Source: Vulcanimicrobiota bacterium (lineage in GTDB: Bacteria > Vulcanimicrobiota > Xenobia > Xenobiales > JADMJV01). From it: DNA of 64,000 bases. The notes under the pieces were generated by a model. The model did no database searches. It saw only the letters and a list, made by a program, of their open reading frames with translations, and was not told the origin of the DNA. Location: assembly GCA_050486105.1 (NCBI GenBank), contig JBJHCR010000001.1, positions 14,510 to 78,509 on the forward strand. Direction: 5' to 3'. A program made the translations under genes and the position numbers. Positions 41,891 through 42,040 of this stretch are shown in pieces (the first letter of the stretch is position 1; the number at the start of each line of letters is the position of its first letter).

Positions 41891-42040
41891 TGCAACGTCT
41901 GTGAAGTTCGTCCCTACTGAATGGTGGTCAGGCGCGTCTATCGCAAGGAGAAGCGAACGCTTAATACCAGGCGTATTTGAGTGAGCTTCGACGCTGCGAG
42001 AGAGGATGCATGGCCGCCAGGGCTAGGGACGAACTTTGCG
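41891..42040. repeat. MITE-like / structured intergenic element, family A copy 1 (~150 bp) with ~27-bp terminal inverted repeats
   Basis: TIRs are tgcaacgtctgtgaagttcgtccctag and ctagggacgaactttgcggacgttgta. The core ctatcgcaaggag...gagcttcgacgctgcgagagagg is shared with the copies at 47181-47337 and 58419-58580. Confidence 0.55.

Follow-up and report, generated by a model that had tools for sequence, protein, structure and literature searches.

A structured module shared by hairpin elements of a Vulcanimicrobiota genome and of other bacterial phyla

Palindromic repeats of bacteria are as a rule restricted to one lineage, and it is their ends that define them. The closest described systems, ERIC/IRU, bcr1 of Bacillus cereus and the Correia elements (NEMIS) of Neisseria, are intergenic imperfect palindromes of 100–170 nt that often abut stop codons, are co-transcribed, form long RNA hairpins open to RNase III and exonucleases, and are present or absent between relatives. 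Here we describe a repeat of comparable appearance, family A, in a 64,000-nt stretch of the genome of a Vulcanimicrobiota bacterium (contig JBJHCR010000001.1; hereafter the window, whose coordinates are used throughout). While the described repeats keep their terminal repeats and are each confined to one genus or family, the ends of family A differ by subfamily, an internal core of ~22 nt recurs across at least four phyla, copy number is low and there is no clear target-site duplication (TSD).

We interpret family A, tentatively and at slightly less than an even chance, as a non-autonomous hairpin element that has spread horizontally and has at its centre a structured module absent from RNA catalogues. 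It would act as a folded single strand, most likely co-transcribed RNA, whose loops dock a factor in trans or form a catalytic fold. The module matches no catalogued RNA family and is a candidate new one. In the scheme we propose, the element would carry no mobility gene of its own and would insert lineage by lineage after horizontal spread. Its module would sit within long, lineage-specific ‘insulating’ stems, which make up a rod of ~160 nt in the window, and would be transcribed with a neighbouring gene, in the 3' untranslated region (UTR) at copies 1 and 2 and in the 5' leader at copy 3. The invariant loops would then be the docking site of a trans-acting protein, or possibly the catalytic fold of the RNA itself; a docked factor would help the element to be processed or propagated, and the long duplex would be a natural substrate for RNase III or a block to 3' exonucleases. 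Both the docking of a factor and the way in which the element moves are inferred.

The window contains exactly three copies of family A, all on the forward strand (Table 1), at the places where a first-pass annotation had put them. The pattern TCGCAAGRAG-N20-45-CGACGNNGYGAGAGNGG matches these three copies and nothing else in the window, with none expected in 100 shuffles, and a covariance model of the core (R1), run with filters off, scored copies 1, 3 and 2 at 71, 57.2 and 55.7 bits, respectively, the next match in the window reaching 10.7 bits. The copies are 157–167 nt long and share no conserved open reading frame (ORF). Copy 1 had been drawn at 41891–42040; its location stands, but its rod reaches ~42053, some 13 nt further. 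The long inverted repeats described for the family are likewise real at copies 1 and 2, and at copy 3 they are more degenerate with folding retained. Copies 1 and 3 are ~80% identical over their full length, and what copy 2 has in common with them is the inner core alone, cta-TCGCAAGRAG ... GAG-N3-4-CGACGNNGYGAGAG-NGG. The shared core as initially proposed therefore holds for all three copies in its inner part, but two of its words, tggtggYcaggcgc and gagcttcgacg, belong to copies 1 and 3 only. Nor is the likeness confined to a shared promoter motif.

Each copy folds as a single long rod, with minimum free energies of −96.5, −94.9 and −77.3 kcal/mol for copies 1, 2 and 3 and z-scores of −11.2, −10.4 and −3.8 against dinucleotide shuffles. 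When the three copies were aligned with a metagenomic relative (L021), RNAalifold returned 54 pairs, 16 of which stay paired through changes on both sides. Paired cells made up 92.5% of this alignment compared with 83.0% after column shuffling, and the 16 both-side-changed pairs compare with 6.5; none of 500 shuffles attained either observed value. As a control, sliding the 3' partners by 1–3 columns left only 36–49% of cells paired. The covariation proposed as a check on the family thus clearly supports a folded single strand. The two pairs beside the loop (23-64 and 24-63) occur as CG/AU/GC and CG/AU/GU/UA among 14 sequences.

The polarity of this strand can be read from seven rods on five contigs (the three copies, L021, L013, L014 and L003). 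Their sense-strand folds contain 60 G-U pairs against four A-C 1×1 mismatches, G-U accounting for 8–25% of pairs. Antisense folds are weaker by 19–33 kcal/mol in six of the seven (for copy 1, −63.4 compared with −96.5 kcal/mol), the gap at L014 being 5 kcal/mol. The compensatory changes, together with the excess of G-U over A-C, argue for selection on one folded sense strand. A folded single strand of sense polarity is thus being maintained, and most likely it is RNA.

While we infer RNA rather than single-stranded DNA (ssDNA), the asymmetry alone cannot part the two: folds of copy 1 under DNA parameters are likewise asymmetric (−45.6 compared with −31.4 kcal/mol), G-T is the least bad mismatch in DNA, and selection on the same strand as ssDNA would also yield an excess of G-U. 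Family A could on these grounds be an ssDNA hairpin element, whether REPIN/RAYT, IS200-IS605-derived or an attC- or CTX-phi-like folded attachment (att) site, in which the ssDNA (of the lagging-strand template, for instance) folds into the rod, and an HUH nuclease or recombinase encoded elsewhere recognizes or cleaves the conserved internal loops. We regard this as unlikely. It would accommodate the terminal inverted repeats (TIRs), which are not common to the subfamilies, and the lack of a consistent TSD, both typical of HUH or hairpin-att elements. A second family of rods in the window, with 94.5% identical copies in opposite orientation and no TSD, would suit it as well. However, a G-U share of 8–25% is normal for RNA helices and costly in DNA hairpins, neither an HUH or RAYT gene nor an integrase gene was seen in the neighbourhood of any copy, and the orientation tracks the local gene even on the minority strand (rod I3).

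Two known kinds of hairpin element were compared with family A. REPIN/REP sequences and the IS200/IS605-derived PATEs resemble family A in being hairpin-forming and strand-biased, with selection on the folded strand and neither TSD nor classical TIR. Unlike family A, REP units are 20–40 nt long, carry a GTAG-type word and occur by the tens to hundreds next to a RAYT gene; no REP-like unit is present here, there are three copies in 64 kb, and no Y1-transposase domain among the window ORFs scanned. The G-U content and the purine-rich asymmetric loops of family A, by contrast with REPINs, look like RNA. With integron attC and the folded attP of CTX-phi, family A shares the keeping of structure over sequence and one strand that folds better, and copy 1 (GTGCAAC ... 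GTTGTAC) nearly matches the R'' and R' boxes, RYYYAAC and GTTRRRY, with one mismatch per box. Yet the AAC/GTT is lost elsewhere (ATT for GTT in copy 3, AGC/GCT in L021, unrelated sequence in copy 2), the part that is conserved in sequence occupies the middle of the hairpin rather than its base, there is neither integrase nor cassette array, and the stems are too short in some forms (those of the candidate phyla radiation, CPR) or, in the rods, far too long.

What all copies have in common is only a central module of ~75 nt. It is closed by the helix (Y)U-UCGC / GCGA-GA(G), beyond which lie a main internal loop (5'-AAGRAG / 5'-CGACGNN), a short helix of 2–4 bp whose pairs covary, and a second loop in which GA opens the 5' strand and GA closes the 3' strand; a variable apical hairpin follows. 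The main loop is readable as G-C, R.A, A.G, G-C, a possible tandem sheared G.A platform. Its R position shows G/A variants (copy 2, L011 and L014), and the close relatives L011 and L022 differ there.

Several familiar readings of these core words were tried and set aside. As a Shine–Dalgarno sequence, AAGGAG is followed by no start codon, and its G/A variation suits an R.A pair better; as a CsrA-type site, it loses the GGA in the AAGAAG variants. A kink-turn would have plausible tandem GA steps at both ends of the short helix, but inspection of the alignment shows extra unpaired nucleotides on both strands in either polarity. By inspection, there was no fit to sarcin-ricin, domain IV of the signal recognition particle (SRP) RNA, the hammerhead core or the loops of the hairpin ribozyme. 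Coding potential was also rejected by inspection: an ATG-led frame common to copies 1 and 3 and L021 is absent from copy 2 and from the other phyla.

Beyond the window, the core pattern was found at four loci among 185,579 species-representative genomes, and all four are true structural homologues (L001–L004; Table 1, with host phyla taken from the record titles). A slightly looser pattern gave 20 loci in metagenomes, eight of which have the full hairpin architecture and score 62–70 bits with R1; the other 12 are chance matches lacking the hairpin, at no more than 19 bits. Altogether the homologues outside the window (the four loci and the eight metagenomic ones) score 56–73 bits, and the module occurs in at least three phyla besides Vulcanimicrobiota.

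In these homologues the module is set in three different scaffolds. Long rods (scaffold A) comprise the seven discussed above, among which L021 is 84% identical to copy 1 with unrelated flanks. Low-GC contigs of CPR type (scaffold B; L004, L011/L022/L026 and L017/L018) have a compact four-way junction, in the order closing stem P1, 5' hairpin, module with a long A/U apical stem, and 3' hairpin. Scaffold C, seen at L001 and L002, is a composite palindrome of 265 nt in which an outer inverted repeat of 32 nt holds the module arm and a second long hairpin in a three-way junction; its terminal 15 nt (TTAGGYCGYGTGGAC) are also found in the Rhodothermales copy. That the module is intact across such differing scaffolds suggests that the module itself is the functional unit. 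The composite, with its outer repeat and two hairpin modules, resembles the RNA layout of a retron msr-msd, but its neighbours are Ddl-like, SDR and GT2 genes and there is no reverse transcriptase. A formal parallel is with the eukaryotic CORE-, V- and Deu-SINEs (see PMC11481361), in which a highly conserved central domain occurs in very distant hosts with head and tail swapped. Those are retroposons with pol III promoters and LINE-derived tails, however, and no mechanistic homology is implied.

Syntenic comparisons point to the insertion of family A into its present sites. Across ~100 kb of syntenic secA–prfB–porin DNA from four relatives (SecA 75–80% identical), no copy was found; L027–L031 lack the element. 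By blastn, window positions 47120–48079 (960 nt, comprising copy 2 and pcm) stand in for 150 nt of the relative L027. Between secA and prfB, the window has a further insertion, a Uma2 nuclease gene. Given this absence from syntenic relatives, the copies are lineage-specific insertions at indel boundaries. The spacer between prfB and the porin gene in the relatives lacks both pcm, which encodes protein-L-isoaspartate O-methyltransferase, and copy 2, and the two together resemble an indel of a gene plus a hairpin.

Family A is small, non-coding, palindromic and present or absent between relatives. It was initially described as a family of miniature inverted-repeat transposable elements (MITEs) or of structured small RNAs (sRNAs). 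The broader part of that description, a repeated, structured, non-coding and mobile-looking family, stands, but neither a classical MITE nor a free-standing sRNA gene fits well. A classical MITE would be a deletion derivative of an insertion sequence (IS) with a DDE transposase, mobilized in trans through its TIRs; an IS5- or IS630-like parent with a CTAG or TA target would be the candidate. Copy 1, copy 3 and L021 do share end sequences, and TA or CTAG-like words lie on both sides of copy 1 and L001–L003. These words are palindromic, however, and merely lengthen the stem, and no flanking repeat at all is present in copy 3 or L021. Copy 2 and L014 have an identical asymmetric CTCAG...CTTAG, which suggests element sequence rather than duplication. 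No consistent TSD was found among the copies. Copy 2 lacks the terminal repeats of copies 1 and 3, and the ends of copy 2, L013, L014 and L001–L003 are unrelated while the internal core is kept, the reverse of what recognition by a transposase would lead one to expect. No parent IS was seen among the window ORFs examined. Taken together, we find a MITE origin most improbable. A CTAG, CTNAG or TTAG word recurs at both feet of rods in the window (copy 1, copy 2 and I4) and of L001–L003 and L014, in both hairpin families and across phyla. Such a word might serve as insertion target, be recognized at the element's termini or mark where processing occurs.

The copies sit close against genes. The stop codon of the 392-aa ORF upstream of copy 1, whose product has no Pfam domain, is the start of the copy, and the terminator that had been noted downstream is there by inspection and by fold (a UUCG hairpin with a U-run at ~42075–42105; −17.3 kcal/mol), although a simple terminator scan did not flag it; two Rfam sRNA models also align with this hairpin through their terminator parts. 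Its position ~25 nt after copy 1 places the copy within the 3' UTR of that ORF. As stated previously, copy 2 lies between the convergent prfB and pcm, where it exactly fills the gap between their stop codons; copy 3 extends into the inositol monophosphatase ORF at its 5' end. Two GTGs in frame with that ORF, at 58525 and 58552, fall in the 3' arm of copy 3, which probably holds the start codon of that gene. The gene-relative position thus varies (3' UTR for copies 1 and 2, 5' leader for copy 3). The orientation of every copy in the data set is that of a flanking gene or tRNA.

This setting bears on whether family A might serve the host as a regulatory RNA, acting either in cis, as a leader or 3'-UTR element that controls secA, prfB and suhB-type genes, or in trans, as a set of sRNA genes. 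The terminator-like hairpin after copy 1, the translation and secretion genes that neighbour the window copies, and the low-GC versions, which stand alone between terminators, would all be in keeping with it. On the other hand, the position relative to genes is inconsistent, the orthologous secA/prfB regions of the relatives lack the element, and the neighbours elsewhere (Ddl-like, SDR, GT2/GtrA, VCA0040-like translocase, accD, Ser/Thr kinase, RlpA-like, Fic, IF-2 and Type ISP restriction-modification) include no protein family conserved across the element loci. Such unrelated neighbours rule out a gene-specific regulator. An sRNA gene also sits poorly with a terminator-like hairpin at copy 1 alone of the three, with the wedging of copy 2 between stop codons and of copy 3 over a start codon, and with the lack of any sigma-70-like promoter for the copies, sigma-70 being a consensus that may not be this phylum's type. 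We therefore hold a host regulatory role to be highly improbable and return to a mobile, co-transcribed hairpin as the preferred reading.

The most informative unexplained feature of the element is its linkage to tRNA ends. In all three low-GC lineages, it is found 40–60 nt downstream from an intact gene for tRNA-Tyr, tRNA-Asn or tRNA-Lys, with a terminator-like hairpin between the two. The 3' arm of P1 is a direct repeat of the T-stem-3'/acceptor-3' segment of that tRNA: 23 nt at L017, including CCA and 4 nt of trailer, and 10 nt each at L011 (GCCCAGTCCC) and L004 (CCTACTTCCA). The 5' arm of P1 complements this repeat and contains a T-stem-5'-like word. The resulting layout (target repeat, ~45 nt, complementary arm, module, target repeat) is the hallmark of a site-specific insertion into the 3' end of a tRNA, here by an insert of only ~156–180 bp that encodes nothing, an integrase included, and has Fic, IF-2 and Type ISP restriction-modification genes as neighbours. 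No direct repeat of a tRNA 3' end was seen at the window rods. A tRNA primer site of the primer-binding-site kind was rejected: the complementarity at L004 does not begin at the CCA end and the repeat at L017 runs 4 nt past CCA, limits that favour duplication at the DNA level. Downstream of the Saccharibacteria copy, L004 carries a partial second copy of the 3' half of the module (~5000–5060 of that locus, minus strand; TAGATTTTCCGAACCGACGCC...), which suggests repeated insertion or recombination at one tRNA-Tyr-linked site.

Integration of a folded-hairpin att element at a tRNA end would leave this same layout, with the target repeated in one stem arm as in a folded att site, which counts in favour of the ssDNA alternative considered above. 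However, the closing stem of the tRNA-linked forms, at only 8–12 bp, is too short for a complete recombinase core site. A bolder possibility is that the module defines a new functional RNA class, a small ribozyme or the handle of a mobilizing enzyme, that marks tiny non-autonomous hairpin-inserting elements across phyla, and that its CPR forms home to the T-arm and 3' end of tRNAs and rebuild the target as an arm of the closing stem. This we consider decidedly unlikely.

Searches of catalogues bear on both that proposal and that of an uncatalogued self-cleaving or otherwise catalytic small RNA, embedded in rods and junctions much as hammerhead and twister motifs are. Rfam 15 gave no matches in the 64-kb window at gathering thresholds. 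For copy 1 at E ≤ 10 there was nothing on the element, the local matches being look-alikes of terminators downstream; nine related loci at gathering thresholds yielded tRNAs only, and five loci at E ≤ 5 again nothing on the element. None of the families hammerhead, twister, twister-sister, pistol, hatchet, HDV-like, hairpin, 6S, SRP, Y RNA/YrlA or HEARO was among the matches. Nothing meaningful came from blastn of copy 1 against plasmids or of the Saccharibacteria copy against phages, and pattern scans of IMG/VR returned one chance match without the hairpin and otherwise none. In the literature searched on the core words, on structured RNAs of Saccharibacteria and on integrase-less tRNA inserts, no description of the element was found.

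The lack of an Rfam match is compatible with a new ribozyme, as are conserved nucleotides in internal loops between covarying helices, variable peripheral helices, and a sporadic distribution across phyla at low copy number, intergenic and near tRNAs. In these respects family A recalls both small self-cleaving ribozymes, with their conserved loop nucleotides between covarying helices, and the intervening sequences of rRNA, which are likewise sporadic and consist of hairpins inserted in helix loops. Family A is not in rRNA, however, and it has no known cleavage site. Moreover, the main loop is flanked by only two helices, the two loops are 3–5 bp apart and so too close for docking like that of the hairpin ribozyme, and the sequence marks no site of cleavage. 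We thus view a ribozyme as very unlikely and keep to the hairpin element with a module that would be either docked or catalytic.

Several observations weigh against this preferred reading and should temper it. Because the core words were required by the search pattern, the ‘invariance’ of the module across phyla is in part imposed and hence overstated; the pattern-independent evidence consists of the covarying helices around the core and the bimodal model scores. Exact-pattern matches number just 1–3 per contig set, and the four among the species representatives are few for a proliferating element. The degeneracy of copy 3 and its overlap with a start codon mean that some of the copies may have no function. 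To these may be added the strand asymmetry, which, as noted above, ssDNA would share.

The window also holds other repeats and genes of interest (Table 1). A second, unrelated family of rods, ~165 nt long, is represented by two copies. As bare rods, their sense and antisense folds are −94.6 and −74.1 kcal (copy at 23049) and −76.5 and −60.9 kcal (copy at 40446), and with short flanks −100 and −78, and −84.5 and −66 kcal. A T2SS-F-like ORF has its stop codon at the start of the latter rod, which, together with copy 1, brackets the orphan ORF between them. One of two Uma2-family genes (PF05685, a putative PD-(D/E)xK nuclease) adjoins the other rod and a set of tandem repeats; the second Uma2 gene, between secA and prfB, is a lineage-specific insertion of ~800 nt in place of 33 nt in relatives. 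Of the two SecA paralogues, the first, a protein of 1188 aa, is extended by ~200 aa at its N terminus and may be SecA2-like. SecA homologues, 61–77% identical and named by their sources, place the window in Vulcanimicrobiota/Eremiobacterota. Two tandem, paralogous porin-like genes share blocks of 70–79% identical DNA, with an SLH domain detected by Pfam in the first only. A cyanobacterial origin, which was also considered, was rejected in favour of this placement, as only four HIP1 sites (GCGATCGC) occur in the window.

Table 1. Positions of family A copies, their neighbours and other features in the window, followed by the related loci in species-representative genomes.
Feature	Position	Strand	Description
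Copy 1 (c1)	41887-42053	+	complete rod: ~30-bp outer stem, second stem (UGGUGGUCA/UGGCCGCCA), core module, apical hairpin
c1 arms	41887-41916 / 42024-42053		30 nt, 87% complementary
c1 core 5' strand	41941-41950	+	TCGCAAGGAG: helix UCGC, loop AAGGAG
c1 core 3' strand	41989-42002	+	CGACGCTGCGAGAG: loop CGACGNN, helix GCGA, then GAG
Terminator-like hairpin	42075-42105	+	GGGAGCUCAC-UUCG-GUGGGCUU and U-run, 3' of c1
Copy 2 (c2)	47181-47337	+	complete rod; architecture as c1 and c3; outer and second stems without sequence kinship to c1/c3
c2 arms	47178-47210 / 47308-47340		33 nt, 82% complementary
c2 core 5' strand	47234-47243	+	TCGCAAGAAG
c2 core 3' strand	47277-47290	+	CGACGACGCGAGAG
Copy 3 (c3)	58418-58579	+	most degenerate rod: 15 G-U pairs, z = -3.8
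c3 core 5' strand	58468-58477	+	TCGCAAGGAG
c3 core 3' strand	58518-58531	+	CGACGTCGTGAGAG; core helix with G-U
Orphan ORF	40712-41890		ends at start of c1
prfB	46085-47119		convergent with pcm
pcm	47337-48005	-	
Inositol monophosphatase ORF	58525-59394		5' end overlapped by c3
Second-family rod	23049-23221	-	sense strand given
Second-family rod	40446-40608	+	sense strand given
Tandem repeats	23828-23934		38-39-nt units
Uma2-family gene	~24200-24823	+	adjoins rod 23049-23221
Uma2-family gene	45176-45778	-	between secA and prfB
SecA paralogue	24944-28510		first paralogue
SecA paralogue	42488-45163		second paralogue
Porin-like gene	48371-50938		855 aa
Porin-like gene	51089-53920		943 aa
ARAGORN 'tRNA-Asp(atc)'	52484-52578	-	inside second porin-like ORF; probably false positive
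Direct repeats	9287-9455		3 x 54 nt
Direct repeats	36197-36334		2 x 69 nt
90-nt repeats	18537-20338		inside paired beta-propeller/CarboxypepD_reg-like genes
Inverted repeat	4314-4444		23 nt, 85-nt spacer; in or overlapping ORF 3364-4728 (phosphonate-binding-like); weak fold asymmetry, may be chance
CHAT-domain (caspase-like) protein	58-3186		large; at window start
L001, L002			one Pseudomonadota metagenome-assembled genome; composite scaffold
L003			Rhodothermales metagenome-assembled genome, chromosome; rod scaffold
L004			Saccharibacteria metagenome-assembled genome; four-way-junction scaffold

Family A departs from ERIC, bcr1, Correia and REPIN sequences in its variable ends with a cross-phylum core, its low copy number and, in some forms, its linkage to tRNA 3' ends. 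From Vulcanimicrobiota to Pseudomonadota, Rhodothermales and Saccharibacteria, the internal module and its purine-rich loops stay fixed although the ends vary, and this combination of free ends and a fixed interior points to a specific molecular partner. The tRNA-end-linked forms hint at how a gene-less element of ~150 nt could integrate. In the Vulcanimicrobiota genome itself, which belongs to an uncultured phylum, the element accounts for odd gene boundaries, where repeats take in a stop codon, a start codon and a 3' UTR. More broadly, its module is a candidate for a new entry in Rfam-type catalogues, and it comes from phyla in which RNA biology has hardly begun.

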